A DNA stretch of 64,000 nucleotides from IMG/VR virus record IMGVR_UViG_3300022821_000015, positions 13,973 through 77,972 of that record, one strand, 5' to 3'. Shown one piece after another: positions 1,366 to 43,578 of this stretch; positions within the stretch are counted from its first letter, which is position 1; each line of letters begins with the position of its first letter. Below the pieces are notes generated by a model. The model ran no database searches. It was not told the origin of the DNA and was given only the letters and a program-made list of their open reading frames with translations. The stretch comes from a virus. The translations under genes were made by a program, and so were the position numbers.

Positions 1366-1773
1366 TTAAGCTAGGTCAAAGCCCGGTGCTGTTACAAGCG
1401 CACCAGAAACGTCAAGCGAGTTCGGCGTTGTAGCACGAATTGCCGTCTGAAGTGCTGCTGCTGTCCAAGCACCTGTTGGGTAAACAGCTACTGAAATCTG
1501 ACCAGTTGCGTCACCTTCAACTTGGTACATAGCAAGAGTACCTTTTGTTTGAACCGTGCGAAGAATATCTTCAACTGCTTCAGTTGCGCCCATTTCTCCA
1601 GTAATGTCGGTTACTGTATCAGAACCGTTTGCTACGATAACTTTGAAGAAGTCAAGTGCTGGACCTTCAAAGATTACTGTTTCGTCAGCTGTGATTGGAT
1701 CAGCGCCTTTAGCGGACGTGTCCTTGTATACTACTGCATATGCATCACCATTTGTACGTGTGATTGTTGCCAT
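1366..1773 (-). CDS. Small Ala/Thr-rich probable virion protein
   Basis: 135 aa with structural-like composition; upstream AGGA RBS and late-promoter-like CATAAATA near 1831-1838. Confidence 0.5.
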   Translation of the reverse strand: MATITRTNGDAYAVVYKDTSAKGADPITADETVIFEGPALDFFKVIVANGSDTVTDITGEMGATEAVEDILRTVQTKGTLAMYQVEGDATGQISVAVYPTGAWTAAALQTAIRATTPNSLDVSGALVTAPGFDLA

Positions 1774-1862
1774 TTTATTAATTCCTATCTAAAATATATA
1801 TATTGTGAAACACTTCGTTTCACTTACTTTTATTTATGCAAATAAGCAAAAAACTTATTTTT

Positions 1863-2657
1863 TTACATCATAATACTGCCAAGCTTATGCCCTACATAAT
1901 AAGCACCAGCCATGGCGGCGGCGGTTTTAACCCATCCGGGGATTTTGTGACCTTGTTTTTCTGCTGATTTTACGGTTTCAGAACTTGGCACCATATTTTT
2001 AGTGGTTTCTTTCCAAGGCTTGAAAATATCACTCATAAATCGTCTATCTTGACGAAAATGCAGTGTCAGTCGTGTCGCAATCATATTACGCTCAGAAGGG
2101 GTTGCCATCGTATAATCTTGTGCAATACGACGCATACGTTTCAGAATACCGTTCTTAATACCAAGTGACTTTTCCATCTTCAAGAAGAACTGACGGTCTA
2201 AACCGGGATTGGCATTTCCTGCCTTAACGTCACGCAAGTAACGCTTAAACGCTAGTTCAGGAATATTGATATTTTCGCCAGTACCCACGGTATCTGCAAA
2301 TTTGGATGGATTCATAATAATAGATGCAATATTATGAAGGTCGGTTGCGCCACTACGTACGTTACTAAAGTCAAAGAACTTCAGGGTTTCTTGTGCGTAC
2401 TTTGCGGCAGCTTCTGGATTTTCGTACCGTAATTGTTGAAGCATGATCATATGTTCGAAGAATGTTTCGCCCATATCAGCCATAGTATGCCCAGCAGCGT
2501 TTCTAGGAATACGAATATAACGTGCTTCCTGTAACTCACCACCGATAAACTTTAGTTTACGGTCGTCTGTGATTTCAAGACTAGTGAAGGTGCGGTGTTC
2601 CAACCATTTGTCTTCTAGTCCTTCAAAAATATCATTCTTCGGAAATACATAATCCAT
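1863..2657 (-). CDS. Hypothetical protein
   Basis: 264-aa ORF in a co-directional gene run. Confidence 0.65.
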   Translation of the reverse strand: MDYVFPKNDIFEGLEDKWLEHRTFTSLEITDDRKLKFIGGELQEARYIRIPRNAAGHTMADMGETFFEHMIMLQQLRYENPEAAAKYAQETLKFFDFSNVRSGATDLHNIASIIMNPSKFADTVGTGENINIPELAFKRYLRDVKAGNANPGLDRQFFLKMEKSLGIKNGILKRMRRIAQDYTMATPSERNMIATRLTLHFRQDRRFMSDIFKPWKETTKNMVPSSETVKSAEKQGHKIPGWVKTAAAMAGAYYVGHKLGSIMM

Positions 2658-2661
2658 AATA

Positions 2662-2898
2662 TTATCTACTTAGCTTATTCGAAATCGAACTTTTAATACT
2701 ATCCAATGTATAAATTTCGTCGTTGATATCAGATTGTAAATTGATATTATGCTTGTTCTTGATATAAAAATCAATGAAATCACTTAGCTTCACGGATAAA
2801 TCTGCCCACTGCTCGCTCATCATATCGTTTTTGTCATACTGTGGATTTTCATTAATAATATCATCCATTTTGCCGATTAGGTCTGTCATTTCGCTCAT
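2662..2898 (-). CDS. Hypothetical protein
   Basis: 78 aa; ATGA overlap with the upstream ORF. Confidence 0.5.
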   Translation of the reverse strand: MSEMTDLIGKMDDIINENPQYDKNDMMSEQWADLSVKLSDFIDFYIKNKHNINLQSDINDEIYTLDSIKSSISNKLSR

Positions 2899-3134
2899 TT
2901 CATTTTCCTTATACCACGTGTAAACTTTTTTGGATCGTGTGTGCGTATAGCATTTACAAGACGTTTCTCCAAATCTACTGCTGTTTCTTGATCGTAACTC
3001 TCGTGAATCATATTGATAAGGTTCATAGCCGAATCGATAATGTTAGTGGCACGATTCTCCAATACGTGAACTCTATCACGTGATGTAGCTAGTTGATCTA
3101 GTTCTTCTAAGATGCTTCTTGTTTTTTTACGCAT
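2895..3134 (-). CDS. Hypothetical protein (start revised to MRKKTRS)
   Basis: CATAAATA late-promoter motif just upstream of ATG 3134. Confidence 0.6.
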   Translation of the reverse strand: MRKKTRSILEELDQLATSRDRVHVLENRATNIIDSAMNLINMIHESYDQETAVDLEKRLVNAIRTHDPKKFTRGIRKMK

Positions 3135-3172
3135 ACAGTATTTATGGCTTTCAAACATTTATATAAACAAAA

Positions 3173-4015
3173 TCAAATAACATATACGGACTGAACATGA
3201 TTGTATTTTGATAATGTGTCGAGGATGTCTTCTTGTGACTGTGTGGAATCTAGTTGTGCTATCTTTATGTTGCCCGTGGTTAGCCTAGGGTCGCCAATAT
3301 CGTAACCTTTGTCTATAAAATACTCTGAGTTATCTATCTTATACTGTTCATACAAGGCTGAGTTATCCTTAGTATCTGAAAAGCTGATTATGAAATCGGA
3401 GCTATAGTGTAGGTTAGGAACAAAGTCATGGTGATGATCGTCGTTGTCCTTTGCTAAACTCTCAACGTTCTTACCCACGTCTGCATACATAACGTATACA
3501 CCGCCGAACTCTTTGGTGTTTTGGAACAGCTTATAATCTTCGATGTCATAGGTCTTTGTTTTTGGTAAATCAAACCACACAACCCTGATTCTTTTGTCGG
3601 CACCAAAGTTCTCTGCACGATGTACGAGTTGGTTTACCTTGCTCAGTCTTTGCTGTTCCTCTAATGTCAATCCACTTCCTTGCCATGCGTCTAAGCTACC
3701 ATGGTAAATCTCAAATACGCTATGGATGTGATTTAGGGTGTCTTGATCGTCGGTGCTGCCTAGTTCGACGCCACCAAACATATTAGGCATCTGCCTAATC
3801 AACTCATTTATATTATCCAATATACGATTTTCAGACCAATCCATATTGAGGTTGTAGAATGCATCCGGCTCGCTTATCGGATACCCACGCTGTTGTGCTT
3901 CTTTGTATCTTGATAACCACTTTTTCACGAAGTGGTTACTCTCTAGCCTAAAGTTGAAATCACAGGTAGTCTCGTAATCATTGCGAGTGCTAAGTCTTAC
4001 TTTTATTGTGTCCAT
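3173..4015 (-). CDS. Hypothetical protein
   Basis: 280-aa ORF with His-rich motifs (LNHIHSVFE, NQLVHRAE). Confidence 0.65.
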   Translation of the reverse strand: MDTIKVRLSTRNDYETTCDFNFRLESNHFVKKWLSRYKEAQQRGYPISEPDAFYNLNMDWSENRILDNINELIRQMPNMFGGVELGSTDDQDTLNHIHSVFEIYHGSLDAWQGSGLTLEEQQRLSKVNQLVHRAENFGADKRIRVVWFDLPKTKTYDIEDYKLFQNTKEFGGVYVMYADVGKNVESLAKDNDDHHHDFVPNLHYSSDFIISFSDTKDNSALYEQYKIDNSEYFIDKGYDIGDPRLTTGNIKIAQLDSTQSQEDILDTLSKYNHVQSVYVI

Positions 4016-4017
4016 CG

Positions 4018-4243
4018 TTATCGGTTCAACTTCGATATCATATCTTTGAGTTCTTGACGCTTTGTATCGTCGTTTATCTTCATCGGTTCCATCGGTTCTG
4101 CTTCTTGTACACCGTCACCATTCTGTCGGCTCTTGATCTTCTTCAATCTTACAACGGATACATCCACTATGCCATGGTGAAATTTCACCAGACGGGGATA
4201 TATCAATATTAGTCCATGGAGCAAAACATTTAGGGGCTATCAT
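4018..4243 (-). pseudogene. Chimeric remnant: twitch/SPASM-like radical SAM N-terminus plus a second copy of the helicase C-terminal tail
   Basis: ATG 4243 frame reads MIAPKCFAPWTNIDISPSGEISP-WHSGCIRCKIEE. Another frame reads IKSRQNG...EPMKI...LKDMISKL, resembling the helicase tail IKTRQEG...EPMHV...LTDMLQAL. Confidence 0.45.
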
Positions 4244-5643
4244 TAACTTTTTCCACTCAGCGCTTGCAGCATATCTGTAAGTTTGGATGACTGAACATCC
4301 GCTTTGACATGCATTGGTTCTATTAACGTAGGTTCATCATTGTCCTCGTTGCCTTCTTGACGGGTTTTAATACGTTGCATGATGTCACTGGACGGCTCGG
4401 TTCCGAGGACTTGAGCTTCCTCGCCTATGTCAGTAATGCGAAGTGTTTCGGTATCAAACCCAAGGTCAATCGTTTGCCCAACACCACCCGATGATCTTGT
4501 CTTCATAAGCTGGATTTGATAGCGTCCTAGTTCTCGCATTTTGCGTGTGGTACGAATACCAAACAGGTTGTCCGCCGTATTAATCTTTGAAATACCGCCC
4601 GAAATCATCGAATGATCGAATTCAACTTCATCGACCGCCGTGCGGTTTAGCTGGGATGCCGTAACAAATAATATATCAAGTTCCTTGGCAAAGTTGCGCA
4701 ATTCTTCCGACACATACTTGTCCTTAACAAACAAGTCACTAGGAGATACCTTTGCAGAAACCGGCATCAACAAATCAAGATAGTCAACCATAAGGAAGTC
4801 AATCTTTCGTCCCGTTCTTACTTGCAACTCTTTAAGATACGAACGCATATTGTTGACAGTGCTTTGCGATGGCATATATTTGATCTGAAGACTACCTGAT
4901 TTCGTACCCGCACTCTTAACTTTCCACTCAACGTCATCGAGGTTCCTGAAGATTTCACGCGAATGTGTGCCAGTGACCATACTATCAATACGCATCGCAC
5001 ATAGCTCTTCAGCCAATTCCAGCGATATATACACGCCATTCAAACCATTAAATACCCAGTTCACGGCAATATTCTGCATAAACAGTGACTTCCCCGATCC
5101 TGATCCACCAGCGAAAATGTTTAGTTCACCTTTGTTAAATCCGCCATATAGGCGACGGTCAAGCGTCGGCCAGCCCGTAGAATTTTGTCCATTGCTATCT
5201 CTCAACTTCAGTAGGCGGGCGCGGGGATTATCAAAATAATCCGTCCCAATATCCTTAGTCAATGATATTTGCACTGCGTCTTTAATTAGCTTTTCGATTG
5301 GCTCGTATTCTTGCTTTTCAATCATATCTGCTGCTGTCAAGATAGCACGATTCAACTCGCTAAATTTAGTGAATCCTTCAAATTCCTTCAAAAACCAATC
5401 GTAATGTTCCTCTGTTAGTTCTGGAACGGGTTCTAATTGTGTTCCGGTCTTAGCTTTGATTTGTTCTCTGGTAGGCAGTGTGCTATGCGCCTCTGCGTGT
5501 TCAGCCATAAACTCAGCAGCCTTGCGCAATGATCTATCAAAGTTGCTTACATTGTAAATATCTTGTACTCGCACATAACTTTGTGCATCTTCTAGCATCA
5601 TTTCTAAAAATAGTCGTTGTAAATCTGGTGTATATTCGCTCAA
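4243..5643 (-). CDS. gp41: Replicative DNA helicase, DnaB/T4 gp41-like
   Basis: Walker A GGSGSGKS, Walker B LMVDYLDL, TASQLNR and KTRSS motifs of SF4 helicases. Confidence 0.93.
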   Translation of the reverse strand: MSEYTPDLQRLFLEMMLEDAQSYVRVQDIYNVSNFDRSLRKAAEFMAEHAEAHSTLPTREQIKAKTGTQLEPVPELTEEHYDWFLKEFEGFTKFSELNRAILTAADMIEKQEYEPIEKLIKDAVQISLTKDIGTDYFDNPRARLLKLRDSNGQNSTGWPTLDRRLYGGFNKGELNIFAGGSGSGKSLFMQNIAVNWVFNGLNGVYISLELAEELCAMRIDSMVTGTHSREIFRNLDDVEWKVKSAGTKSGSLQIKYMPSQSTVNNMRSYLKELQVRTGRKIDFLMVDYLDLLMPVSAKVSPSDLFVKDKYVSEELRNFAKELDILFVTASQLNRTAVDEVEFDHSMISGGISKINTADNLFGIRTTRKMRELGRYQIQLMKTRSSGGVGQTIDLGFDTETLRITDIGEEAQVLGTEPSSDIMQRIKTRQEGNEDNDEPTLIEPMHVKADVQSSKLTDMLQALSGKS

Positions 5644-8453: not shown

Positions 8454-8468
8454 TATTTATACTAAATA
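8454..8468. promoter_or_regulatory. Back-to-back T4-like late promoters
   Basis: TATAAATA on minus (8454-8461) and CTAAATA on plus (8462-8468) between divergent genes. Confidence 0.6.
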
Positions 8469-20039: not shown

Positions 20040-21032
20040 GTGTTCATAGAAAAAATAAGACAAATATTCCCCGACAGTCTAATAGTAGACGCCGCACTGA
20101 AGTATCCAATCACCGAAGATGGATGGGAAGTCGATATGCCCGAAATAGAAGATTGTCGGTTTCATTTAAAAGACTTTCGACTTATATTAATATTACAAGA
20201 TATGCTTACTATAGATGACACAAGTTTATTTCCACGTGAACTAACCCAAATACACAGTCATTATTTTAACAAGGTTGATTTAAATCAACTCATTGTGATT
20301 ACTTGGCCATGTGGGTTAGCTGCCGATTGGAACCAAACAAACAGCTTTACAGTCGTGGAGTTTAGTTCGCACCAATATAACTTATGGGAAGCATATAAGC
20401 AATCTGAAGATGTATTACGTGAAGAATTCAAACACAAAGATTATGAAGATAATTTCCTTTGCATGAATAGGATTGATAAGCCTCATCGACGAGCGATATA
20501 CGGTGCGATTAAAGATTGTCCCGGCAATAGTAGCTATCAGCATATGGGAATCGAGTTAAAGTATCCCGGCTTTTCCTATACCGAATACAACAAGCATTAC
20601 GATAATCTATTGAACTTACTCACGTTAAAGAAGAACTTCAATACCAGTCTATTCAGTATCATTTGTGAATCACAATACTATGAACGCTACGGTATTATTA
20701 CTGAAAAAACTTTTAATGCTATGGTGGCGGGTCATCCATTTATTATGATAGGTCACCAATCCGCATTACAAGATATAAAGAGTTACGGGTTTAAAACGTT
20801 TGACAATATGTTCAATGAAGATTATGATGCTGAAGATAATAGCAAACGTGGGGTCGATGCGCTTCACGCTAACTGGCTGATGATTGGCAAAACGATGGCA
20901 GCGAAGTCTATGTATGAACTACAGCACTATTGCCATGATGATATTGAATATAACCGTGACTATTTCTTTAACGAGTTTGGAAACTATCTTATCAATAGTC
21001 TTCAACAGCAGTTACTCAAATCTTGGTCTTAA
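20040..21032 (+). CDS. Putative glycosyltransferase-like protein
   Basis: FLCMNR..HR and ITEKTF..M..GHPFIMIG...GFKTF motifs reminiscent of GT10-like C-terminal domains. Confidence 0.5.
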   Translation: MFIEKIRQIFPDSLIVDAALKYPITEDGWEVDMPEIEDCRFHLKDFRLILILQDMLTIDDTSLFPRELTQIHSHYFNKVDLNQLIVITWPCGLAADWNQTNSFTVVEFSSHQYNLWEAYKQSEDVLREEFKHKDYEDNFLCMNRIDKPHRRAIYGAIKDCPGNSSYQHMGIELKYPGFSYTEYNKHYDNLLNLLTLKKNFNTSLFSIICESQYYERYGIITEKTFNAMVAGHPFIMIGHQSALQDIKSYGFKTFDNMFNEDYDAEDNSKRGVDALHANWLMIGKTMAAKSMYELQHYCHDDIEYNRDYFFNEFGNYLINSLQQQLLKSWS

Positions 21033-21448
21033 ACGGCATTGTAATCATATGGTGTGGTAAACGTAAACTTAGCTTCGGCGTTGTGGGTAATAACAAACTT
21101 CCACCAGCTCCCAGTAGCTTCATTATCAATATCAGCCGTATGAATAACACCGCCAAAATCAATAGTTCTCCAACGCATAGCATTGCCATCGATTCGGGTT
21201 CCAAGCCATTCCACATTTCTGTCGTTATCGGAATCGGTATACTCATCATTCATAAATGTGACTGCAAGGGTATGTGCGCCATCCGCCAAATCAAGCGTAA
21301 TGGAAATAGTGGTTGGATTTAACGGATCAATCGAGGTGATATCCGTGTTCAGTGAATGCCACACATCGTCAATCATAACACATACCATTGGATTGGTTGC
21401 ATCTATTTTAACGGCGGTGAAGTCAAGTTCAAAAGTGTGTTCGGTCAT
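21029..21448 (-). CDS. Carbohydrate-binding-module-like protein (CBM60-like)
   Basis: HTLAVTFMNDEYTDSDNDRNVEW. Confidence 0.55.
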   Translation of the reverse strand: MTEHTFELDFTAVKIDATNPMVCVMIDDVWHSLNTDITSIDPLNPTTISITLDLADGAHTLAVTFMNDEYTDSDNDRNVEWLGTRIDGNAMRWRTIDFGGVIHTADIDNEATGSWWKFVITHNAEAKFTFTTPYDYNAV

Positions 21449-21463
21449 TATAATATCCTTCTT

Positions 21464-22276
21464 TTACTTATTTATCCAATACTTTTTTATTTTTTCATCA
21501 ATCTCGTGGGGTTTTGGGTCGCCATGACACACGACAACAGCACAATCTTCTGGTAATATGAAAGGAATATCTGGCTGCAAATACGACGAACGTTCAGTTC
21601 CGTTGTTTATCTTGCCGCCTTTTTCAAGTTCCCATTTCCAAGACATTGCCCATTCACGTGGCCACCACGCCTTTTGATCTGGATTATTGTCAAAATATTG
21701 TGTTAGAAAATCTTGGTCGCCTCGGAATCGGGTTATGATTCCTTGAATATTATTGCTCCATTCTTTCCATATACCCGTAACTTGTTCTGGACTAAACTTC
21801 ATAATAGAACTGTTGCTTACCCGATAGTCACTAACATACTGGCGATTGAAGTCTTGGCAAATACTAAACTTATCTTGTTGATGATCGAAGAACTTATCGA
21901 TGCTATTAATGATTACTAAATCTAGATCAAAATATAAAGTATTATCACCAAAGCCATTGGTGGGATCGAACATACACATTTTGAACCACCACGCCTTACG
22001 ATGATCAAACATCTTGATACCGATATTAGACCAGTCGGGAATAGGAATAACACGACAAGGTATTTTACTTGCAATGCTGCTGTTATCAGTTATTACATTA
22101 AATCTTATTTCGTGTGTTGTATTACGAACGACAGCGTTGTAAAGATTGATTACATAATCTTCACTGTATTTGTCGCCAACCCATACACAAACAACGTCAA
22201 GGGTCTTAATCGGGTGTTCCGCCAACATCTTTTCTTTGAATATCTGCTGATAAAGGTTCTGGGTAATATACTTCAA
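21464..22276 (-). CDS. GT-A glycosyltransferase (GT8-like)
   Basis: CVWVGDKYS, WWFKM, YFDLD (DxD), NSS, GDQ and HGDPKPH. Confidence 0.8.
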   Translation of the reverse strand: MKYITQNLYQQIFKEKMLAEHPIKTLDVVCVWVGDKYSEDYVINLYNAVVRNTTHEIRFNVITDNSSIASKIPCRVIPIPDWSNIGIKMFDHRKAWWFKMCMFDPTNGFGDNTLYFDLDLVIINSIDKFFDHQQDKFSICQDFNRQYVSDYRVSNSSIMKFSPEQVTGIWKEWSNNIQGIITRFRGDQDFLTQYFDNNPDQKAWWPREWAMSWKWELEKGGKINNGTERSSYLQPDIPFILPEDCAVVVCHGDPKPHEIDEKIKKYWINK

Positions 22277-22556
22277 AACATACTACATCGGTTAGTGCCC
22301 TGAACCGATGATACTCGTTCGGCTTGCATATAGTGATGTCGCCAGCTTTTAATAAGGTAGTATCAACTAAGTCATAATCATTCTTATGAACTTCAATCTC
22401 AAGCTCGCCTTCTACTACATAAAAAGCATTATGTTTATACGAGTGTTTATGCAGTGAACAGAATCCACCAGCCTTAATATCAATGCGGTGAAACTCCACA
22501 AATGGCGTTTCTAACAGGAGTTCAGTCTGACCCCATACTTTTCCTTGCTTGCTCAT
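22206..22556 (-). CDS. Cupin (mannose-6-phosphate isomerase-like)
   Basis: KVWG, SLHKHSYKHNAFYV and PNEYHRF. Confidence 0.8.
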   Translation of the reverse strand: MSKQGKVWGQTELLLETPFVEFHRIDIKAGGFCSLHKHSYKHNAFYVVEGELEIEVHKNDYDLVDTTLLKAGDITICKPNEYHRFRALTDVVCFEVYYPEPLSADIQRKDVGGTPD

Positions 22557-22690
22557 TTTTTATTCTTTTTCATTTGCTTCTTTACAAAGGATACCGATTT
22601 CTCCGGTGGCATATTACCAACATCAATATAATAAACCTTACGTGTCGGGGCACTCTGAATACGCTTTACAATAATATCATCTTCGCTCAT
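22553..22690 (-). CDS. 45-aa microprotein resembling the clip segment of the T4-type portal gp20 (not in ORF track)
   Basis: MSEDDIIVKRIQSAPTRKVYYIDVGNMPPEKSVSFVKKQMKKNKK; AGGA RBS; stop overlaps the next ATG (ATGA). Confidence 0.7.
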   Translation of the reverse strand: MSEDDIIVKRIQSAPTRKVYYIDVGNMPPEKSVSFVKKQMKKNKK

Positions 22691-22699
22691 TTTTATTTC

Positions 22700-23020
22700 C
22701 TATCTATATGGTTGATAATATTCATACCCGTATCCCCAACGCCAAGGAAATGGTAATCGTGGATGCCCGCCTATACGAACACCGTAATACATTAATGCGG
22801 CGATTATTGGATAACCTTGACGGGTAACAGATGATGCCAATATTAAATCAGCACGTTTTCTTTCTTCTGCTGTGCCGCCAGCCCAATAGGATTTATCATG
22901 TTCAACACAATGTCCTTCCCATGGTGGCGGGCGTCTAAGAAACGTTTTCCAAAACCAAGACATTCCGCCAGAACATCCATCGGTCGTAAAGGGTTTAGAT
23001 GGTAAGTTGCTATTATTCAT
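22700..23020 (-). CDS. Small phospholipase A2-like protein
   Basis: DGCS...CVEHDKSY...RKRAD...MYYGVRIGG, the CxxHD/D/Y pattern of prokaryotic PLA2-like folds. Confidence 0.5.
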   Translation of the reverse strand: MNNSNLPSKPFTTDGCSGGMSWFWKTFLRRPPPWEGHCVEHDKSYWAGGTAEERKRADLILASSVTRQGYPIIAALMYYGVRIGGHPRLPFPWRWGYGYEYYQPYR

Positions 23021-23025
23021 AGTTA

Positions 23026-23071
23026 TATTTATATGTGTATATTACTAGGATATTATTTTCCTGTATAAATA
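23026..23071. promoter_or_regulatory. Divergent perfect T4 late promoters
   Basis: TATAAATA on minus (23026-23033) and plus (23064-23071). Confidence 0.7.
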
Positions 23072-23075
23072 CATT

Positions 23076-23828
23076 ATGTCCACATATTATTTTGATAGAT
23101 TAGAAGAAGCAAAAGACGCAGAATACGTGGTTTTCATCGGGTATGACCCACTCGAAGACCAATGCGCCAAAATGTTAGCACATAGCATTCGTTCCAAAAC
23201 CACAATGGATTTAAAAATCATTCCGATTGTGCGTGACGAACTGTTAGCGTATGGTATATTTGAACGTCCCGTTGATCCGAATGGTTCTACACAGTTTTCA
23301 ATCACACGGTTCATGGTGCCAACATTAATGGGATTTACAGGTATCGGGATTTTCTTTGATTGTGATATGCTGATTACACGTGATATTCATGAAATGTTTA
23401 ACTTATATGATTCAAACTATGCAGTGCAATGCGTCCGACACGATTACATACCGAAAGCTGATCCGAAGATGGGTGGCAAACCGCAGTCAACATATCCACG
23501 TAAAAACTGGTCAAGTGCGGTTATATATAACTGCGCACATCCGTCCAATAGTGTGTTAACGAAAGGCAGCGTAGAACAATCAACGCCGCAGTTCCTTCAT
23601 CGTTTTGAATGGTTAGAGGATTCCGAGATTGGTGCATTGCCGATTGAGTTTAACTTTTTAGTTGAAGAATACGAGTTGGCTAAATCAATGCCATTCAATC
23701 TTCATCATACGTTGGGTCCGATGATATACCGTGAAAAACTTTATGCGGATTACTCAGAGTATTGGAAGGCTCAATACCATCACACGTTCGGGAAGCCGTT
23801 TGATCCAGACATTGACTGCGTTGGGTAA
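23076..23828 (+). CDS. GT-A glycosyltransferase (GT8-related)
   Basis: FIGYD, STQFSITRF, FDCD, YPRKNWSS and LHRFEWL. Confidence 0.8.
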   Translation: MSTYYFDRLEEAKDAEYVVFIGYDPLEDQCAKMLAHSIRSKTTMDLKIIPIVRDELLAYGIFERPVDPNGSTQFSITRFMVPTLMGFTGIGIFFDCDMLITRDIHEMFNLYDSNYAVQCVRHDYIPKADPKMGGKPQSTYPRKNWSSAVIYNCAHPSNSVLTKGSVEQSTPQFLHRFEWLEDSEIGALPIEFNFLVEEYELAKSMPFNLHHTLGPMIYREKLYADYSEYWKAQYHHTFGKPFDPDIDCVG

Positions 23829-23954
23829 TAATATCATTGCCACGATTGTTTGTTCCAAGCTTTACGGGCGTTTTCAATATATCGTCCATAGTCTGTCGCC
23901 ATGATCGGGGTGGCGGGGCTTTTAACGCATCCCAAAACTTTTCTTTATCTTTAT

Positions 23955-24767
23955 TCATCGGATTCCGCACATTTCATATGCAAATCCACTATACATTTCC
24001 TTTGACGTAAACTGTGAATATGCCAACGTATTACATATATTTTTAGCTTCATCGGGATACCAGTCAACAGCTTCAATGCATGATATCCCTAAACTAGTAA
24101 CTGGATTATGATTAGACGTAGTTACCACCGGCACACCATTAATGATGGCTTCAACGCTTGCCATGCTTGCTGATGCTACTACACAATATGCGTTTTTTAT
24201 ATCCTCTGCAAATGGAATATCAGCGACGTGCGGACCACTAGTTCCGTTCTTACGTGGCTTATGCCGCACACGGATTGGTCTATCTGTAATCTTTTGTATA
24301 GTTTCGATAGTTGATAATATCCAATCCCGTTGGGTCATATTACCGACCAGTATATGCATATTATTAGAACTTGGGCAAAGTATTATTTCATCGCCTTTTA
24401 CTCTTTTCTTAGCAATACTAATACCAAACTTGTCAAATCGATCAGGTGGATCATTTCGGAAAATATCTCGTTGATGAACTGAGTTTTTGCAAATGCGCCA
24501 ATAACATTCATCATCAGGTCTATGTGGATTCCAGCGTCCGAAATATGGCATATCACTGAACAGCCAAGAACCATGTTTTGCATCATAAGTCTTAATCATC
24601 TGATGATTTTGACCGACCAATCCCCAAAACATACCCATTCCGCCCTGATATTCGTAATCGTGTTCGATATGCGTGTCACCACCTTTCCAGCCCTGCATAA
24701 AGGGTGAAAAAACGTGCCAACACTTACTATCTTCTTTGTTTCGGGGAACGTATATATTTAAATTCAT
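23955..24767 (-). CDS. KpsS/KpsC-like GT-B protein, paralogue 1
   Basis: DMPYF, RHKP, SMASVEAIINGVP and AYSQF; sigma70-like promoter at 24773-24801. Confidence 0.65.
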   Translation of the reverse strand: MNLNIYVPRNKEDSKCWHVFSPFMQGWKGGDTHIEHDYEYQGGMGMFWGLVGQNHQMIKTYDAKHGSWLFSDMPYFGRWNPHRPDDECYWRICKNSVHQRDIFRNDPPDRFDKFGISIAKKRVKGDEIILCPSSNNMHILVGNMTQRDWILSTIETIQKITDRPIRVRHKPRKNGTSGPHVADIPFAEDIKNAYCVVASASMASVEAIINGVPVVTTSNHNPVTSLGISCIEAVDWYPDEAKNICNTLAYSQFTSKEMYSGFAYEMCGIR

Positions 24768-24801
24768 ACGTAATATTAAATCATCTTAATCATTTTGTCA
24801 A

Positions 24802-25590
24802 CTATAAAATGTTATGCAGAATGCCTTCGTCCATTTCACGAACACTGTATTGGTCGTATGCCACCGATTGAAGCCACGCTTGATATAGATTATCGTCGGG
24901 ATATTTCAATGGTTGTGTGAAGTCTGTTTGAAATACAGGGGCGGCGGCATTTTCTGGGTCTACATAACAAGCAACGCCTTCTAATGCTGCTTCGACTGCC
25001 ACACCACCAGCAAACGATGCGATGGCAAATACATCATTATCAGCGATAGATTTTTGCAATGTATCGCCCGCAAATCTTTCATCCTTTGGTGGTTTTGGTC
25101 GCAACACGATATTCTTTGTTGGATGGGTTTCCTTTAGCTGTTGCATCGTGCGGTCGGTCCATTCAGGGGATGTGATATCATACGAAAGCATTGTTTTATC
25201 GGTAGGCGGGCATACCATAATGGTTGAGCCATCCTTTTTCCAAGGCTTTGCTTCGATGCCATTCTGTTGAAACATTTTCCATCTGTCGTCTGGTCGGTCA
25301 ATGATTTTATTGTTTTGATAATGGTTTAATGTTACCCGATGATAAAACTTACTTGCAGGACGATTAAAGTATCCCGTATCAATAAAGATAAAGTCTGTGC
25401 TTTTATTCCAACACGATCTTACGTGGTGACAAATCTTACGTGAACGTGACCTAAAAACATAATAATCATTTATACCGATTGTTGGCATAGGGTCTTCAAA
25501 TGTCAAATCTATTTTTGTGCTTCTTCGAAACATAGCTTCGTAAATAGCTGTCGTATTTTTGTTATCATTATTCAGGCAATAAAATGTCAT
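24802..25590 (-). CDS. KpsS/KpsC-like GT-B protein, paralogue 2
   Basis: DTGYF, PWK, RPKP and VAVEAALEG. Confidence 0.65.
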   Translation of the reverse strand: MTFYCLNNDNKNTTAIYEAMFRRSTKIDLTFEDPMPTIGINDYYVFRSRSRKICHHVRSCWNKSTDFIFIDTGYFNRPASKFYHRVTLNHYQNNKIIDRPDDRWKMFQQNGIEAKPWKKDGSTIMVCPPTDKTMLSYDITSPEWTDRTMQQLKETHPTKNIVLRPKPPKDERFAGDTLQKSIADNDVFAIASFAGGVAVEAALEGVACYVDPENAAAPVFQTDFTQPLKYPDDNLYQAWLQSVAYDQYSVREMDEGILHNIL

Positions 25591-26537
25591 GCGTTATATT
25601 CCTTAAATCTATTCCATAGTTCACCAGTTGCCAGTTCGTTGGCTGACCACATCGTATGCGACAAGTCGTGTATCCACTGATTACGGTCAAAGATTTCATA
25701 GTTTGATACTGCGTTGTTTACATTATTATGGCACACGGGATAAGCGTGTGACAAGCTATCCATTGCTATCGTCGGGATTCCATATAACGCACTTTCTACT
25801 GCTACGGTAGAGTTGAATGTTACCGTAAGACATACATCATCAAACGTTTCATATAACGGCGTTTCTTTTGGGATTAACGTTATTTTTTTAGTATCACAAA
25901 ACTTACTAATCTCATCATATTCAGCACGTTTGGTATTGGGGTGCGGTTTTATTTGAACTTGTTTGCCTAGTTTTTGAAACAACGTTACGGGTCTTTCAAA
26001 AATGTCGGTCATTTTTACCATATTCATCGAGAAGCCTTCGAACGGTTGTGCCAAAATAAGAACACGATTGCCACTACGACGATCCATATTATATGGAATA
26101 TTGAACTCTTTCTGTAGCATATTCCAGCGGTCAGGTGTGCTATTTTCATTTAAGAACACGCCGTTACGCAGCGGACTATTCATTCCAAATCTAAAATACT
26201 TGAAGTTGCGTAGGCTTTTAAAAAATCCACCATCCCAACAAAAAACCTTACCGCCGCGTGCTTCTACTTTAGTGATGATACTGTGCTTCCAGTTTTGTAA
26301 CCAATGCTTGGGATTATTATCTTCTCGTCTACCGTATCCAAATATAACTACATTATTTTCTTGTGGAATAATAAACTTATCGTCGTATATAACGGGGGTA
26401 TCGCCCGCTGCTTTAATCCCATCTTCAATACCTTGAAATACTTCTTCGATAATATTTCCTGCGTGAACTTTCCATATTCCTTGATGTTTGGAATCTTTCG
26501 GTTTACCCGTTCGTCGCATTATGGCTACCTTTGCCAT
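25587..26537 (-). CDS. KpsS/KpsC-like GT-B protein, paralogue 3
   Basis: DGGFF, KPHP and TFNSTVAVESALYGIP. Confidence 0.7.
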   Translation of the reverse strand: MAKVAIMRRTGKPKDSKHQGIWKVHAGNIIEEVFQGIEDGIKAAGDTPVIYDDKFIIPQENNVVIFGYGRREDNNPKHWLQNWKHSIITKVEARGGKVFCWDGGFFKSLRNFKYFRFGMNSPLRNGVFLNENSTPDRWNMLQKEFNIPYNMDRRSGNRVLILAQPFEGFSMNMVKMTDIFERPVTLFQKLGKQVQIKPHPNTKRAEYDEISKFCDTKKITLIPKETPLYETFDDVCLTVTFNSTVAVESALYGIPTIAMDSLSHAYPVCHNNVNNAVSNYEIFDRNQWIHDLSHTMWSANELATGELWNRFKEYNA

Positions 26538-27193
26538 TAACCTCTCCGATATAAATGATCGCTGCCTTTTTTAATAGCGTGTTCGTATCCCCAAGATTTT
26601 AACAGTTGAAGCGGGTCATCGCCGCCGAAACGGTTAATAAGTTTTACCTTATATTCGATCATAATATATGGATTGCTTTTTGCGGTTTCTTTTAATCCCA
26701 CAAGTGTTCTATATTCATAACCCTCAACATCAAGTTTAATAAATGATGCGTCTTTGATTTCCATTGAATCAACAGGAACAACATCAAGGTCACCTTCGCA
26801 ACCTACATTGACGTGATATGATCCAGTGCATTCATTCCATATATCATCTTTTGTGATTGATACTTGCTCGTTAACGTCGCCGACGCCTTTGTTTAATAAC
26901 GTCACATTGGTTAATCCCCAATCTGTAATATTACGTTCAAGACATTCAAATGTATCGGGGTTCAACTCGAATGCGTATACATGGTCAAAGTTCTCTGCCA
27001 ACACTTTTGTCCAAGAACCAACGTGTGCGCCGCAATCGATGGCTACTTTAAATGGGGCATTGTTAGCTTTCATAGTGTCTATAAATAGATGTAGTTTATT
27101 CAACTGCCATCCACCTTTATTCTCAAACTCGGTTAAAAAATGTGGGGTATTTTCCTCATCGGGCATCCAATAGTTACCAACTCTTTTCATCAT
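26537..27193 (-). CDS. FkbM-family SAM-dependent methyltransferase
   Basis: IDCGAHVG, AFE and IKLDVEGYE. Confidence 0.9.
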   Translation of the reverse strand: MMKRVGNYWMPDEENTPHFLTEFENKGGWQLNKLHLFIDTMKANNAPFKVAIDCGAHVGSWTKVLAENFDHVYAFELNPDTFECLERNITDWGLTNVTLLNKGVGDVNEQVSITKDDIWNECTGSYHVNVGCEGDLDVVPVDSMEIKDASFIKLDVEGYEYRTLVGLKETAKSNPYIMIEYKVKLINRFGGDDPLQLLKSWGYEHAIKKGSDHLYRRG

Positions 27194-27198
27194 ATCTC

Positions 27199-27835
27199 CT
27201 AAAACTTAAAATCAAATCGTTCTATATCTTTGGCGTAATACTTTTCGATAAAACGCTTACTATTGTCGTTATATTCATCTCGGTATGGCTTCAGCTTACG
27301 GGATCGGTTAGCCGTTGTCATATTAGTAAGATTATATTCATTATTCGTAATCATATTTAGGTAATCAATAATTCCATCCATTTTATCCATTTGGAATATT
27401 TGCTTAATATGGATATTACCATCTCGGCTACGTAGATTATCACACTGACTTATACGTGTTTCTGAAACTGTTTCGTGTACATTATTTGGATTAATATAGT
27501 TGGATTGAACTAACCAATCGGAAAAACTTAGGCGTTTGGCTTCTTCGTATTGTTTCGCATAAAATACGTTTAGACTGCCCCGTGCCGTTAATCGTTGCAA
27601 ATCTTGTATGAATATCACAATACAATGAATACATACGTTCCCACGGATTTCTCACTACCGTAAAACTATTCTTAAACTTACTAACATCGTATTCATATTC
27701 AATCATCGAAACCTTCGAATGTTTATACAATCGATATTTCTCTACGCCTGTTCCTGCCAACATTTCACGGATGCTTGTGCCGCCGCATTTCATCATATGA
27801 TAAAAAAAGAAATCGTGATGTCGATTAACAATCAT
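27199..27835 (-). pseudogene. Sulfotransferase (Sulfotransfer_2-like) split by a frameshift
   Basis: The 5' frame has HMMKCGGTS and VRNPWERMYSLY. The +1 frame has FSDW...YYAKDIERFDFKF. The frames switch near 27620-27560. Confidence 0.7.
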
Positions 27836-28656
27836 TTCCAGTAATCCTGTTTTTTAGCGGCAACAATATCATTCTTATGTGATTTACCATTTTGCTTACG
27901 CTTACCTTTTAGATGGTCAACATAGTCACCGATAATACTATTCACAAATGGATGTCCTTTTACATTGTCTGGATTCAAATCGAAGTTGACAATCTTTTCT
28001 TCTGCTTCCATTTCATTACGGACAAGATCAAATGCATGACAATCCGTCCACTGACGAACATCAAAAATAGCATCGGACGTATACAATAACTCAAACCTAT
28101 TCATAAACTCACGAAAGTATGGATGGTTCATATCGTATCCAAGGAATCCACATTCCGAATATGTAATACGTCCAAGATATGAACAGAAGTAATCCGTTGG
28201 TAATAGTTTTTTCATTGCGGATTCATTAACAGGCGCAAATGTAACGGTATCGGCATCGAACCAAAACATAACATCGCCATCGACCACTGTGGCTGCGTGT
28301 GTCTGTGCAAATACCTTATGACAAAATCTTACAGCATTCCATAAGTAACTTTCGCTTTGTTCCCATTTCGGCTTGATAATACCTTTGCGTTCAACGCCGC
28401 CTTCAATCTTATGCGTGTTAGGCATACCATTAGCAACTGGATCGTTTTGGTGACGGTGCTTGAAATCAATTATTTTATCATACGCCATTAAGTCGTGATA
28501 CACAACGTTATCATAATCGATGGTTGGTCGTGTGCCTTCGTAATATGCGTGAATAGTTACATCACCTTTCCAGTTTGCGGCAAATGTTTCAATCATTCGT
28601 TTGCCATATACATTATATCCATCGTCGTTAAATGTTGTTACAATATTATATTTCAT
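27832..28656 (-). CDS. GT-A glycosyltransferase / nucleotide-diphospho-sugar transferase
   Basis: VTTFN...YG, RFCHKVFA, WFDAD, SECGF and HLKG. Confidence 0.8.
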   Translation of the reverse strand: MKYNIVTTFNDDGYNVYGKRMIETFAANWKGDVTIHAYYEGTRPTIDYDNVVYHDLMAYDKIIDFKHRHQNDPVANGMPNTHKIEGGVERKGIIKPKWEQSESYLWNAVRFCHKVFAQTHAATVVDGDVMFWFDADTVTFAPVNESAMKKLLPTDYFCSYLGRITYSECGFLGYDMNHPYFREFMNRFELLYTSDAIFDVRQWTDCHAFDLVRNEMEAEEKIVNFDLNPDNVKGHPFVNSIIGDYVDHLKGKRKQNGKSHKNDIVAAKKQDYWK

Positions 28657-29509
28657 TTTTCATTCTTTCCCAAGGTAATCCCTGTTTCATTTCTTCCATT
28701 GTCCACTGCATATACGATACCTTTTGAAATAATGCTAATCTATCGGTATCCGACATACTCGGATTTTCTATATTATTCAAATCGGTGTTTCCTAACTCCC
28801 AACTGAATGATCGTTCATTCGTTACAAATACAGGATATCCCAACTGTATTATTTTTAAGTCAACCGTCGATATTATAGCCACACCAGCCCAACAGTTTTG
28901 AAGGTCTTCTTCTAATGTATTCTTCCTTGATATGGTCACACCAGTTAATGTGTCTAAAAATACATTCATTTCAAGGTCGTCTGGTTTTGGTCTGACTACT
29001 ATATCACGGTCAGTAACTGATTTTATTTTTGATATTGTTTTGTTTATCCATTGATATTTATCAAAATCCAAAGCCGAAAAAGCATTTGCTCGTTGTAGAC
29101 ATAATAGTATATGATTGCCATTTTTACGCCAAGGTTTCATATTCAAATGAAGTCGGCTACCATCAATATTGCCCAACGCAAAGTTTCCTAGATTGGGTAA
29201 ATGACTGGATAACGATACTCGATAATGGTCTTCACCTATTAATGGCGATTCGATAATGATTACGTTTTTATGCTTTTCTTGAACTCGCAATCTTTCGGAT
29301 TTCAATGTATTGGCAATAAATCCATCACGATTACCCGTAGGCATTGCCCCTAGAATAATCGCACATGCATTGGGGTCGCCGTCGCCTACGTCATCACATA
29401 CAGTGAAATCATCACCGCATTTAATGATACCTTGTTTAAAAGATTCTACGATTTCTTGCTTTCGTTTTTTTATTCCAATAGTTTTGCGATAAAACACGGC
29501 TTTATTCAT
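28646..29509 (-). CDS. KpsS/KpsC-like GT-B protein, paralogue 4
   Basis: KPWR, RPKP, LEEDL and SYMQWTMEE. Confidence 0.65.
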   Translation of the reverse strand: MNKAVFYRKTIGIKKRKQEIVESFKQGIIKCGDDFTVCDDVGDGDPNACAIILGAMPTGNRDGFIANTLKSERLRVQEKHKNVIIIESPLIGEDHYRVSLSSHLPNLGNFALGNIDGSRLHLNMKPWRKNGNHILLCLQRANAFSALDFDKYQWINKTISKIKSVTDRDIVVRPKPDDLEMNVFLDTLTGVTISRKNTLEEDLQNCWAGVAIISTVDLKIIQLGYPVFVTNERSFSWELGNTDLNNIENPSMSDTDRLALFQKVSYMQWTMEEMKQGLPWERMKNEI

Positions 29510-29513
29510 ATGA

Positions 29514-29532
29514 TATTTATTTGAAATAAATA
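29514..29532. promoter_or_regulatory. Divergent late promoters
   Basis: ATAAATA on both strands between divergent genes. Confidence 0.55.
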
Positions 29533-29537
29533 CCTTT

Positions 29538-30386
29538 ATGAAAATAGCAGTATTCCCTGAACACTCAAGTATGGCTGGGCGACCAGTATTTGACGCATTT
29601 ATTAAGTCGCTAAAAGGCGAAGATGTCGTTCATAACAATATGGATGCGGACGTTGCTGTTATATGGTCGCAACTATGGAACGGCAGAATGAAACCAAATG
29701 AACAGATTTGGAAACATTATCGTTCACAGAAAAAGCCGGTTATTGTATTGGAAGTCGGGTGCTTGAAACGTAATGAAACGTGGAAGGTCGGGATTAATGG
29801 CATTAATGCCGATGCTATTTGGGCTACGGCTAATGGACCAACACGCCTTGGACTTGAAGCCAAACCTTGGTCAACTGGCGACAATATTATTATTTGTGGT
29901 CAGCACGGGTTTAGTGAACAATGGAAAGGTATGCCGCCTATGGACGAATGGATGATTAGTATATGTCGCAAGGTTCGTGCACATACTGACCGCAAGATTA
30001 TACTACGACCCCATCCACGTTTTCACGTATCACCACATTATATAAAAGAGTTTAACGATGTTATTATTGATAAACCGAAACATTTAAAAGGATCGTATGA
30101 TGACTTTGATTTTGAAGATACTTTGGGCAATGCTCACTGTGTCATTTGCCATAGTAGTGGTCCTGCTGTGGTTAGTGTTCTTAATGGTGTTCCCGCTTTT
30201 GTCTCACATCATAATATGGCTTATCCTGTCGCTATGGATATTACTGAGTTGGAACACATAGAGACACCGTTATTGTTTCCACGTGATAAGTGGATAAATA
30301 AGATTAGTTACACTGAGTGGACAATAGACGAGATTGCTGCTGGTGAACCTTGGAATCGATTAAAGGAAAAACTATGCACGGATTAG
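29538..30386 (+). CDS. KpsS/KpsC-like GT-B protein, paralogue 5
   Basis: EVG, KPW, RPHP, HSSGPAVVSVLNGVP and SYTEWTIDE. Confidence 0.7.
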   Translation: MKIAVFPEHSSMAGRPVFDAFIKSLKGEDVVHNNMDADVAVIWSQLWNGRMKPNEQIWKHYRSQKKPVIVLEVGCLKRNETWKVGINGINADAIWATANGPTRLGLEAKPWSTGDNIIICGQHGFSEQWKGMPPMDEWMISICRKVRAHTDRKIILRPHPRFHVSPHYIKEFNDVIIDKPKHLKGSYDDFDFEDTLGNAHCVICHSSGPAVVSVLNGVPAFVSHHNMAYPVAMDITELEHIETPLLFPRDKWINKISYTEWTIDEIAAGEPWNRLKEKLCTD

Positions 30387-39616: not shown

Positions 39617-40717
39617 TTATCTCCAGCCACTCATTCCAGATATAGATGAGAAAAACGGCAATGGTGCCACCATTTGCTCATTATGGTCCCGCATATGCTT
39701 TTCTAACGTGGGATTATAGTCTTTTAATACCGTTGCCATACGCACTACAAGCAATGAAGCCATTACCAAGTCGTCGTTTTCACCTTCCTTTGATGAATAT
39801 GACCGTCCCTTTGCAACAAACGTTTTCATTTCAGATATAAGTGGTTTGCTATAAACAATCATTCGTTCTGATTCAATCATTACTTTAAACTTAGCGCAAG
39901 CCGCAATCTTAGAGTTCTCAGTCGTGTTAAATCCTTTGCGGAACTTCCTAACATTACCAAGTTTCTTCGGTTCTGACAGGAATATACCATCGATATTTTC
40001 CTCACCAAGTTCGGCAATATTGATTAATGCAGCTTCTCCGATTGAGTTATTTTCAACAGAATAATATACATCATTTTTTGTCCCTGTAACATCGGTTAGG
40101 TGGGCACAAATAGATTTCATTACTCTCACTTGTGTTGGAATATCGGACTTATTATGCATCCATTCACCGCATTGAATCATTTCAGGTAGTTCATATATTT
40201 GGATGGCTGCGTTGTCGCCGCCTGTTCCCATAGCGGGGTCCAATCCAACAAGATATACATGACCTTTTGATGGTTCTTTATACCATCGCACCTGACCATC
40301 CACTCTTACTGGCGTAACACCTTCCATATCAACTAGCTTCAACCCGCTAATCAAAGTTTCTTCGTGAATAATAAACTCACAGTTTGATGCCAATACTGTA
40401 TTAGCATAATATCGGTGGCCATCTTCGACTTCTACCAAATCAAACACAGCCCGAACACCAATATATTCTCGTGCAATAAGTGCAAGATGTCCCTCTGAAC
40501 TTAATACCACATCTCCTATATCAAAATCCTTTGCCTCTTTATAGTCAATCAAGTTTTGATATAATTTATGATCTTCTGTGCATTCCAATATTACACCTTG
40601 TTCAAAAGTCAGCTTCCATACTGCCTTATCTCCCATAAAAGATACTCCGGAAAAATCCTTATAGCCATCCGGCGTCAATACTTTATAGTTTTTTATGTTT
40701 GGAGCTAAATCACCCAT
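39617..40717 (-). CDS. terL: Terminase large subunit C-terminal (nuclease) half preceded by a 112-aa split-intein C-part
   Basis: CTEDH, VFDLVEVEDGHRYYANTVLASN|CEF, then GLDPAMG, VENNSIG and NDDLVMA. Confidence 0.92.
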   Translation of the reverse strand: MGDLAPNIKNYKVLTPDGYKDFSGVSFMGDKAVWKLTFEQGVILECTEDHKLYQNLIDYKEAKDFDIGDVVLSSEGHLALIAREYIGVRAVFDLVEVEDGHRYYANTVLASNCEFIIHEETLISGLKLVDMEGVTPVRVDGQVRWYKEPSKGHVYLVGLDPAMGTGGDNAAIQIYELPEMIQCGEWMHNKSDIPTQVRVMKSICAHLTDVTGTKNDVYYSVENNSIGEAALINIAELGEENIDGIFLSEPKKLGNVRKFRKGFNTTENSKIAACAKFKVMIESERMIVYSKPLISEMKTFVAKGRSYSSKEGENDDLVMASLLVVRMATVLKDYNPTLEKHMRDHNEQMVAPLPFFSSISGMSGWR

Positions 40718-41730
40718 TTTTCAAAATCATCCTTCGTTTTTAGTATTTGATAATTGGTTTTAGTCGTGAAGAGCCATACCTCATACGAATATCCTTGTTT
40801 TATAACTGCTTCCCTTTTACGAAGATTATTTACTATTCTACCATCATAACCATCACGGCCATTGGCATTCCACCACCACATTGATTTAACTTCAATGATA
40901 CGATTTTCATCTGGAATAAAAATATCTGGATAATATTTCTTTACTCGGTTTTTTTCATATGAATTATATTGAAAGACTTCTATTACATATTCTTCATAAT
41001 CGTTATGTACACTAATAGAATCTTCTGTATATGTTTCTAGTAAAGCATCGATCACCATATTTTCATAGCCTCGAATACCAATAATTTTACCGCTCGGGAG
41101 TTCATAATCTTTTACCGAAGAGTTACCTTTTCCAGACTTTTTTGAAATGTTTGGAAGTAAAAAGGTATTACCCACACCGAACTTTTCAATGTTTGTCTTG
41201 CGACGTTTTTCATTTATTTCATTCTGTTCGTCAGAAGATTTGGCCCCATTGGTCGCCGCCGATGCTTTCCAGTTAGAATAGTATTCATTGCCATATCTAT
41301 CCAGTTTGGTCTTCTTGGCCTTATCCTTAAATTCGTCGCTTTGTGTCGCCCATTCTGTGCCATATTTTGCACGGAAGGTTTCTCTGGATTTTTCCACTTG
41401 TTCTTGGATTTGCTCGGGTGTTCTCTTTGATGCAGCATTGGATTTGTTCTCAGAATCCGAGTGTCGTTGCTCATCTGTCCAGTTTTGTTTGGTTTCCGAC
41501 ACACTTTTTCCAACACATTTTGGTGCGCCACAACTATTAGCATATGTATGTGTATGTTGATAAAATGTTAAAGATAATCCACATCTACATTTTGGAGAAA
41601 TACCCGTGATGTATTCTTCATAATAGGACTGATATGTATAACTATGTTGTTTAAGATGTTTCGTGAATTGCCCATTTGATTTACAATATTTTTCATTGTC
41701 AATTTTTGATGTTTCGTATGTAGCACTCAT
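40705..41730 (-). mobile_element. Free-standing homing endonuclease between the terL halves
   Basis: Zinc motif, KYG/RYG/KFG repeats, RGYE...KYYPDIFIPDENRIIEVKS (PD-(D/E)XK). Confidence 0.85.
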
Positions 41731-43032: not shown

Positions 43033-43578
43033 ATGACCGATTGTTTGGTCCTTAACGCATCATATGAGCCAATGTCAGTAATACCACTGAGCGCAATTTC
43101 GTGGCAACGTGTAATGAAACTGCTCGTCCTAGATCGTGTCAAAACAATAGCACACTATGACGATTGGGTTGTGCACAGTCAAAAGCTTGCATTCCCTGTA
43201 CCAGCGTTGGTTATCACTACTGAATACTTTGATTTCAAGAAGGCTGTTAGATACAGCAAGGATAATATTTTCTTGCGTGATCTATATCAGTGTCAGTATT
43301 GCAGTGATACTTTTGAAAAAGGCGAACTAACGATTGACCACGTGCGTCCTCGTGCGTTGGGTGGGAAAACATCGTGGGAAAACTGTGCCACTGCATGTAA
43401 GATGTGTAATGAACAGAAGGCTGACCGTATGGAAATGCATCCTATTCGTGAACCTTATAAACCTGATCCACATCAGATGATGTTCGCTATGCGTGATAAG
43501 CCACTGATGATTAAGCATCCTAGTTGGGCTAAGTATCTTGAACCATACCGAAAGGTGGTTTATAAAAAAGCTGTTTAA
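43033..43578 (+). CDS. HNH endonuclease (McrA-like)
   Basis: LVLNASYEP, RDLYQCQYC, TIDHVRP..GG..WEN...C..CN..K; TTGACT-16-TATAAT at 42966-42993. Confidence 0.9.
   Translation: MTDCLVLNASYEPMSVIPLSAISWQRVMKLLVLDRVKTIAHYDDWVVHSQKLAFPVPALVITTEYFDFKKAVRYSKDNIFLRDLYQCQYCSDTFEKGELTIDHVRPRALGGKTSWENCATACKMCNEQKADRMEMHPIREPYKPDPHQMMFAMRDKPLMIKHPSWAKYLEPYRKVVYKKAV

Follow-up and report, generated by a model that had tools for sequence, protein, structure and literature searches.

A free-standing homologue of the T4 portal clip encoded as a 45-residue microprotein by a large T4-like phage

A minus-strand open reading frame in the DNA of a large T4-like myovirus encodes a 45-aa protein, MSEDDIIVKRIQSAPTRKVYYIDVGNMPPEKSVSFVKKQMKKNKK, that corresponds to part of the stem and clip of T4-type portal proteins and stands as a gene of its own (Table 1). 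This portal-derived microprotein, hereafter the mini, is real, probably selected and rare. It has clean boundaries, gene-expression signals and a family of stand-alone relatives with the same boundaries, and it bears a signature of selection. Judged from its sequence, it is probably a working molecular mimic. The best explanation that we can offer, held at a little short of even confidence, is that the mini is a selected copy of the clip, the target of which would be the packaging or assembly machinery of the phage itself. The DNA analysed is a stretch of 64,000 nucleotides (the window) from a 78-kb IMG/VR record estimated to be 22% complete.

Table 1. Positions of the mini, of its neighbours and of other features discussed in the text.
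Locus	Feature	Position	Strand	Remark
Window	45-aa mini ORF	22553..22690	(-)	homologue of portal gp20 ~266-310: α5 end, clip donor strand, TerL-contact tip, α6, basic tail
Window	spacer with AGGAAA ribosome-binding site	22691..22702	(-)	includes TAG stop of upstream 106-aa ORF
Window	ATGA overlap	22553..22556	(-)	mini TGA shares bases with cupin ATG
Window	106-aa ORF (phrog_6098) upstream of mini	22700..23020	(-)	function unassigned; co-transcription with mini probable
Window	cupin gene, 116 aa, downstream of mini	22206..22556	(-)	85% identical in mini-less syntenic relative
Window	TATAAATA motif	23026..23033	(-)	5 nt before ATG of 106-aa ORF; candidate late promoter
Window	TATAAATA twin	23064..23071	(+)	4 nt before ATG of divergent gene; candidate late promoter
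Window	glycan-building cluster	20040..30386		several glycosyltransferases and cupin; variable slot upstream of cupin gene
Window	TerL C-terminal nuclease piece, 366 aa	39617..40717	(-)	Terminase_6C from residue 157
Window	341-aa homing-endonuclease-like ORF	40705..41730		DUF7487; between the TerL pieces
Window	TerL N-terminal ATPase piece, 308 aa	41759..42685	(-)	Terminase_6N
Window	HNH endonuclease gene	43033..43578	(+)	just upstream of split TerL, opposite strand
Window	653-aa ORF	43639..45600	(-)	between neck/tail genes and TerL
L087	slot corresponding to that of the mini, 2.4 kb	2559..5004		KdsA (KDO-8-P synthase), 222-aa ORF, two small coupled ORFs
L181 (G012)	two paralogous 71-aa clip ORFs	1471..1686 and 1695..1910		right after gp44 clamp-loader gene
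L346	TnsA-like endonuclease gene	3076..3687	(-)	on the other side of P0030 from the portal gene
L346	59-aa mini P0030	3602..3781		ATGA-coupled to the portal gene
L346	PF07230 portal gene	3781..4479		directly downstream of P0030

Residues 1–44 of the mini match the Pfam family Portal_T4 (PF07230; E = 3.7e-11; score 42.9 bits, gathering cut-off 22.9 bits) and cover positions 190–233 (44 of 433) of the profile. The PHROG portal family phrog_213 is matched at 6.5e-11, and a phmmer search of all PDB chains aligned mini residues 3–40 without gaps to residues 268–305 of T4 gp20 (3JA7, 6UZC; E ~1.5e-5). All three comparisons with gp20 and with portal profiles are therefore significant, and the gapless match to gp20 that the first-pass annotation had given is confirmed, the T4 string being exactly the one stated there. 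In T4 gp20, the stem consists of residues 255–278 and 359–377 and the clip of residues 279–358; N291, M292, R295 and K296 at the clip tip face gp17, mutation of N291/M292 or of R295/K296 abolishes packaging, and the clip strand forms the sole main-chain inter-subunit sheet of the portal ring (Sun et al. 2015, PMC4493910). These residue assignments bear out the earlier identification of the mini with the stem-clip segment where TerL docks.

The mini comprises the end of stem helix α5, the single donor strand, the clip tip (G-N-M-P..K) and helix α6, in the same helix-strand-turn-helix order as its gp20 homologue. At the gp17-contacting tip, three of four residues are kept (N291 is N26, M292 is M27 and K296 is K31; R295 is replaced by E30), as is P293. 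The residues that bury the stem helix are changed, T4 Y274 to K9 and R278 to S13. An AF2 model computed from an alignment of minis has a helix at residues 3–12, an extended segment at 13–28 and a second helix at 29–44 (pLDDT 87.6); the sole Foldseek match of this model is the T4 portal, at an E of 0.64 that is too weak to count alone. Unlike the 524-aa gp20, the 45-aa mini lacks a wing, a crown, a tunnel loop and a second stem helix, and thus cannot form a portal; both clip acceptor strands are likewise absent. It therefore belongs to the PF07230 family by sequence but does not have the architecture of a functional portal (wing, two stem helices, full clip and crown).

The mini was described at the outset as having its own ribosome-binding site and ATGA coupling to the next gene, and both are present: AGGAAA lies 7–12 nt upstream of the ATG, and the TGA stop shares bases with the cupin ATG, an arrangement of translational coupling. 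We infer that the mini is translated. Its GC content is that of the neighbourhood. The upstream 106-aa ORF ends 10 nt before the mini and in the same reading frame, with only a TAG and three codons between them. Because TAA, TGA and TAG are all in use and coding density is 93%, this in-frame TAG is probably a real stop, and stop-codon recoding was rejected. The 106-aa ORF carries a conserved motif (C-S-G-G ... C-x-x-H-D-x-x-Y-W) and weakly matches a tail-assembly-chaperone PHROG. A linkage between this gene and the mini was rejected, since four loci with 106-aa homologues have no mini.

A late promoter had also been proposed at 23026. The motif TATAAATA is indeed found there on the minus strand, but its count in the window, nine copies against 7.7 expected by chance, is not above chance. 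Seven of the nine copies lie within 70 nt upstream of a start on the same strand. At three sites, 8454–8461 (-) and the two given in Table 1, the motif stands only 4–5 nt before an ATG, where a T4-type late promoter would yield a nearly leaderless mRNA. Late timing of the mini transcript is plausible.

Over the whole 78-kb record, the Portal_T4 profile detects a single 48-codon open frame, that of the mini, so that the reported absence of a full portal gene holds for the record as well as for the window. Both neighbours of the mini are intact, unrelated genes, and its flanks contain no degraded portal sequence. The mini is not a decaying pseudogene. A split or intein-type portal was rejected, the flanks being unrelated genes.

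In a syntenic relative (L087), the cupin is conserved (Table 1) and the flanking glycosyltransferases are 51–66% identical, and the mini is absent. Since the slot of this relative holds other genes and the loci with 106-aa homologues lack the mini, the slot of the mini in the glycan-building cluster is variable and accessory. The identical mini protein occurs on nine contigs from several sources, and the same DNA in at least nine independent salt-lake runs. All runs with this DNA are salt-lake metagenomes of 2017–2019, and none of them is listed as an RNA dataset. No differences inside the mini were found across contigs of four further salt-lake runs, and positions 22283–23535 are identical in all contigs compared; the population is thus very uniform, and a population dN/dS of the mini is not computable.

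The record contains further T4-like genes, encoding a 1082-aa sheath, a tube protein, a gp4-like head-closure protein, UvsX, a gp32-like SSB, a DnaB-type helicase and a T4-type TerL. Sheaths 60–81% identical are found on more than 500 viral contigs, and a relative of the same sheath clade (G017/L345) has a normal 580-aa T4-type portal, the clip segment of which is 58% identical to the mini (21/36). A T4-type portal is therefore very probably encoded elsewhere in the ~350-kb genome of the window phage. The 653-aa ORF located between the neck/tail genes and TerL has only a faint match to a 'virion structural protein' PHROG and no Pfam match, and is not detectably a portal. The large terminase gene is split in two, and the homing-endonuclease-like ORF between its pieces is out of frame with them, and hence no intein. 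Co-folding of the mini with both pieces of TerL gave a score of 0.00, with TerL's own fold uncertain in the model, and this score counts neither for nor against binding.

To place the mini among other portal-derived sequences, we compared it with full-length portals and with short proteins. Used as a query, the mini matches full-length portals of ~570–590 aa at no more than 61% identity; all of the at least 80 viral and at least 80 metagenome loci listed lie inside such portals. Short relatives came from scanning 1.84 billion representatives exhaustively with HMMER and from a profile search restricted to short proteins. They comprise ~15–20 other stand-alone relatives of 38–60 aa, as well as two-copy forms, several minis being located on contigs of 33–205 kb. 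A lack of conserved homologues, named earlier as a reason to doubt the mini, is thus not what was found. We defined minis as complete ORFs of ~38–60 aa that start near the α5 'ED' or the strand, end after α6 and do not continue into the portal sequence 'NKLVYD..TGE'. True minis with common boundaries (P0007, P0011, P0027, P0030, P0036, P0037, P0038, P0045 and P0063) stop a few residues past α6. Others are core-only (P0071, P0073, P0074, P0078, P0080 and P0081) or are two-copy or fused clip forms (P0003, P0006, P0015, P0019, P0020, P0032 and P0075). The window mini has the length, the boundaries and the Tyr and Arg losses of the group. The pieces P0055–P0062 and P0064–P0066 keep '..IYR..RAPERR..' and continue with 'NKLVYD..TGE', by which they are recognizable as truncated portal gene calls.

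In all 12 helix-bearing minis, K, D, E, T or Q takes the place of the portal Tyr (T4 Y274), and 11 of the 12 have also lost the Arg before A-P. Of ~55 portals and pieces of portals tabulated alongside, nearly all (two exceptions) keep the Tyr and most keep the Arg. Losses of this kind would be expected once a buried stem helix is exposed to solvent. Three pairs of minis (P0038/P0063, 50 and 50 aa; P0036/P0045, 46 and 48 aa; P0001/P0011, 45 and 47 aa) are 50–60% identical and near-equal in length and have derived characters in common that are absent from portals. Such diverged pairs of near-equal length indicate that mini lineages persist and diverge as minis. The strand is the best-conserved part of the minis, and the tip varies among them, with N, D, A, R or T at the position of N291; across T4-like phages, strand and tip together are the most conserved portal segment.

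Minis are rare. The window mini has no close orthologue in 5.8 billion clusters, which contain only identical copies of it, and three distinct minis were present in 3.07 Mb of fetched T4-like loci. GenBank and cultured phages have almost exactly one match per record. When GenBank phages were searched by tblastn with P0001, P0036, G012 miniA, P0032 and P0015, the matches listed were portals only, with no stand-alone mini among them; two of these searches gave two more match places than records. An alignment of P0001, P0011 and P0007 retrieved no minis from metagenomes, all of the at least 80 loci listed being full portals, and P0038 and P0063 matched only portals among viral sequences. A shared-word search found no homologous proteins of greater length, scans of genome contigs gave no match and the ESM Atlas no usable match. 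A match of P0006 in a 595-kb uncultured phage was rejected as a mini, as it is the intein-bearing portal of that phage. A limited search of the open literature found no papers on free-standing portal-clip genes. Two families of small phage proteins, phrog_12349 and phrog_23805, have a clip-like strand-turn-helix unit in common with the two-copy and core-only minis (E to 2e-7). However, these families have no annotated function and no portal-derived description, and the window mini, which matches phrog_12349 weakly (E = 0.033), scores far better against the portal profile.

The contexts of the minis differ: the glycan cluster in the window, and elsewhere positions after regA, after gp44 or before a portal gene. 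P0036 directly follows regA in the gp45-gp44-gp62-regA cluster of a T4-like phage. A 198-kb viral contig (G012) encodes a 616-aa portal and, ~20 kb away, two tandem 71-aa clip ORFs, each with a clip-like strand-helix and further clip strands. Among ~170 portals, the best match of miniA of this contig is its own genome's portal, and the two have the lineage-specific 'KARAH(L/I)EQVK' in common. This argues that miniA originated from the portal of that lineage, and hence that minis have more than one origin. In L346, the mini P0030 directly precedes a portal gene to which it is coupled (Table 1). A mini and a full portal are therefore seen in one genome in G012 and L346, whereas the 22%-complete window record has no portal, and the best full-length match of its mini is a portal of a different type (L019/P0004). 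There appears to have been more than one origin of minis, with at least one lineage's own portal as a source and with convergent surface changes. Several T4-type portal genes contain intein-like (Hint/LAGLIDADG-like) insertions (e.g., L173:321-4046 and L264:974-3547); those in L173, P0066 and P0067 lie within a few dozen residues after the strand-helix unit, marking this segment as a hot spot for mobile elements.

The strongest alternative to a selected clip mimic, which we consider unlikely, is that the window mini is a non-functional or very young scar of portal duplication or recombination, perhaps only a coupling spacer for the cupin gene. Minis are very rare, this one is a singleton missing from its syntenic relative, and its genome abounds in homing endonucleases, which favour the shuffling of gene fragments, as seen in the split TerL and the HNH gene; the L346 mini, too, has a TnsA-like endonuclease beside it. 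Furthermore, portals have a conserved Met just before 'ED', such that broken portals give look-alike ORFs. These broken pieces are, however, distinguishable by their '..NKLVYD..TGE' continuation, and the boundaries of the window mini are clean, with no decay in its flanks. The signs of selection also argue against a scar. Compared with the same-clade portal segment, the mini has a dN of 0.39 and a dS of ~1.2–1.5 (saturated), for an omega of ~0.3. In a drift test, random substitutions were introduced into the same-clade portal segment down to the observed 58% amino acid identity; only runs in which the frame stayed open (49%) were retained, and their products were scored with an HMM built from 44 distinct portal segments. 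The simulated products scored 35.6 +/- 7.0 bits (maximum 59.0) and the real mini 65.0, a value that 0 of 3000 reached, although the true parent portal is absent from the record and the test may therefore overstate divergence. Thus, the mini is 42% diverged from the portal of the nearest clade and yet remains compatible with the portal profile beyond what drift allows. The change of Y to a polar residue in 12 of 12 minis and the equal length of the diverged pairs point the same way, and the Y274 and R278 changes certainly took place on the mini's own branch. Taken with the family of equal boundaries and the mini-specific substitutions, these results agree with the first-pass annotation in its claim of deliberate retention: the mini looks selected.

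Our preferred explanation is that the mini is a clip mimic directed at the phage's own machinery. A partial duplication of a T4-type portal gene would have given rise to it, and it would have been retained as a soluble protein of its own that reproduces the outward-facing clip unit of the portal. It keeps the β-strand that is donated to the two-stranded hairpin of the neighbouring subunit, together with the tip and helix α6, which are contacted by the large terminase, and it has shed the residues by which the stem helix is buried in a full portal. Through competitive mimicry, the mini would occupy a natural partner of the clip, most likely the docking surface on TerL or, alternatively, the hairpin of an unassembled portal subunit. 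Either way, the predicted outcome would be modulation of when or whether motor and portal engage. Both the partner and the effect of binding are what we infer from the portal regions that the mini retains.

For TerL as the partner, which had been proposed earlier, there is a direct precedent: a synthetic 24-aa peptide of gp20 (residues 288–311) binds gp17 and inhibits T4 packaging in vitro, as cited in PMC4493910. The peptide covers the tip and helix α6, as the mini does, and differs in that the mini is a natural gene and is longer by the donor strand and the end of the stem helix. The conservation of the strand fits a portal subunit as partner at least as well as TerL, and the acceptor hairpin of such a subunit best matches both this conservation and the coupling of mini and portal in L346. 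Several points count against a clip mimic acting on the phage's own machinery: a self-inhibitor of packaging would seem costly, and the tip varies among minis, which are rare and differ in context.

The proposed mode of action has parallels elsewhere. MicroProteins are small single-domain proteins that derive from larger ones and titrate the parent or its partners. As with Id and LITTLE ZIPPER, the mini would be a piece of a multidomain protein retained as a gene in its own right, with a dominant-negative or competitive logic, although those microProteins regulate eukaryotic transcription factors, whereas the parent of the mini is a viral structural ring protein. The SaPI protein Ppi, which binds the TerS of the helper phage, is likewise a small protein that interferes by binding with the terminase-portal pathway, as proposed for the mini, but it is unrelated in sequence, encoded by a satellite and targeted at TerS.

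That the mini is instead an immune decoy, as the first-pass annotation also suggested, seems to us improbable. In such a role, it would bind a portal sensor (such as Avs4, Avs11 or RAZR) or mask TerL from Avs1–3. The sensor would be kept from oligomerizing, so that abortive infection would be blunted. Several defence systems are triggered by direct binding of portal or TerL (bioRxiv 10.64898/2026.01.04.697583; PMC13017515). The source of the minis appears to be the portal of the respective lineage, as expected of a matched decoy, and minis occupy variable accessory slots typical of counter-defence genes. Recognition by Avs proteins, however, involves extended, fold-level interfaces (bioRxiv 10.64898/2026.01.04.697583), and RAZR senses assembled rings (PMC13017515). 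Moreover, no defence-related neighbours were seen, and expression from a late operon, should that be its position, would come late for a decoy.

The least probable alternative is that the mini serves as a weapon between phages, one that would poison the assembly of the portal ring or the docking of TerL in T4-like competitors infecting the same cell, its own phage's machinery having diverged enough to be insensitive: mutual exclusion is common among T4-like phages, their portals are conserved enough in strand and tip for broad action to be possible, and the window mini has its best full-length match in a portal of another type, but the resemblance of the G012 mini to its own portal and the coupling of the L346 mini to its own portal gene point to self-directed action.

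Packaging motor, neck and adjacent portal subunits all bind at the portal clip, which belongs to a protein that is detected by several bacterial immune sensors. A natural, encoded soluble copy of the clip would offer a ready-made probe and inhibitor of terminase docking or of portal assembly. In the broadest reading, which is a long shot at present, clip mimics would be recurrently evolved viral microproteins, each made from the virus's own portal and serving as a decoy for immune sensors or as a switch for motor docking. Should minis act on host sensors, they would represent a new principle of counter-defence, a decoy that copies a conserved structural pattern from the phage itself; should they act on TerL or on the portal, they would be the first regulators of motor docking known to be encoded by a phage.
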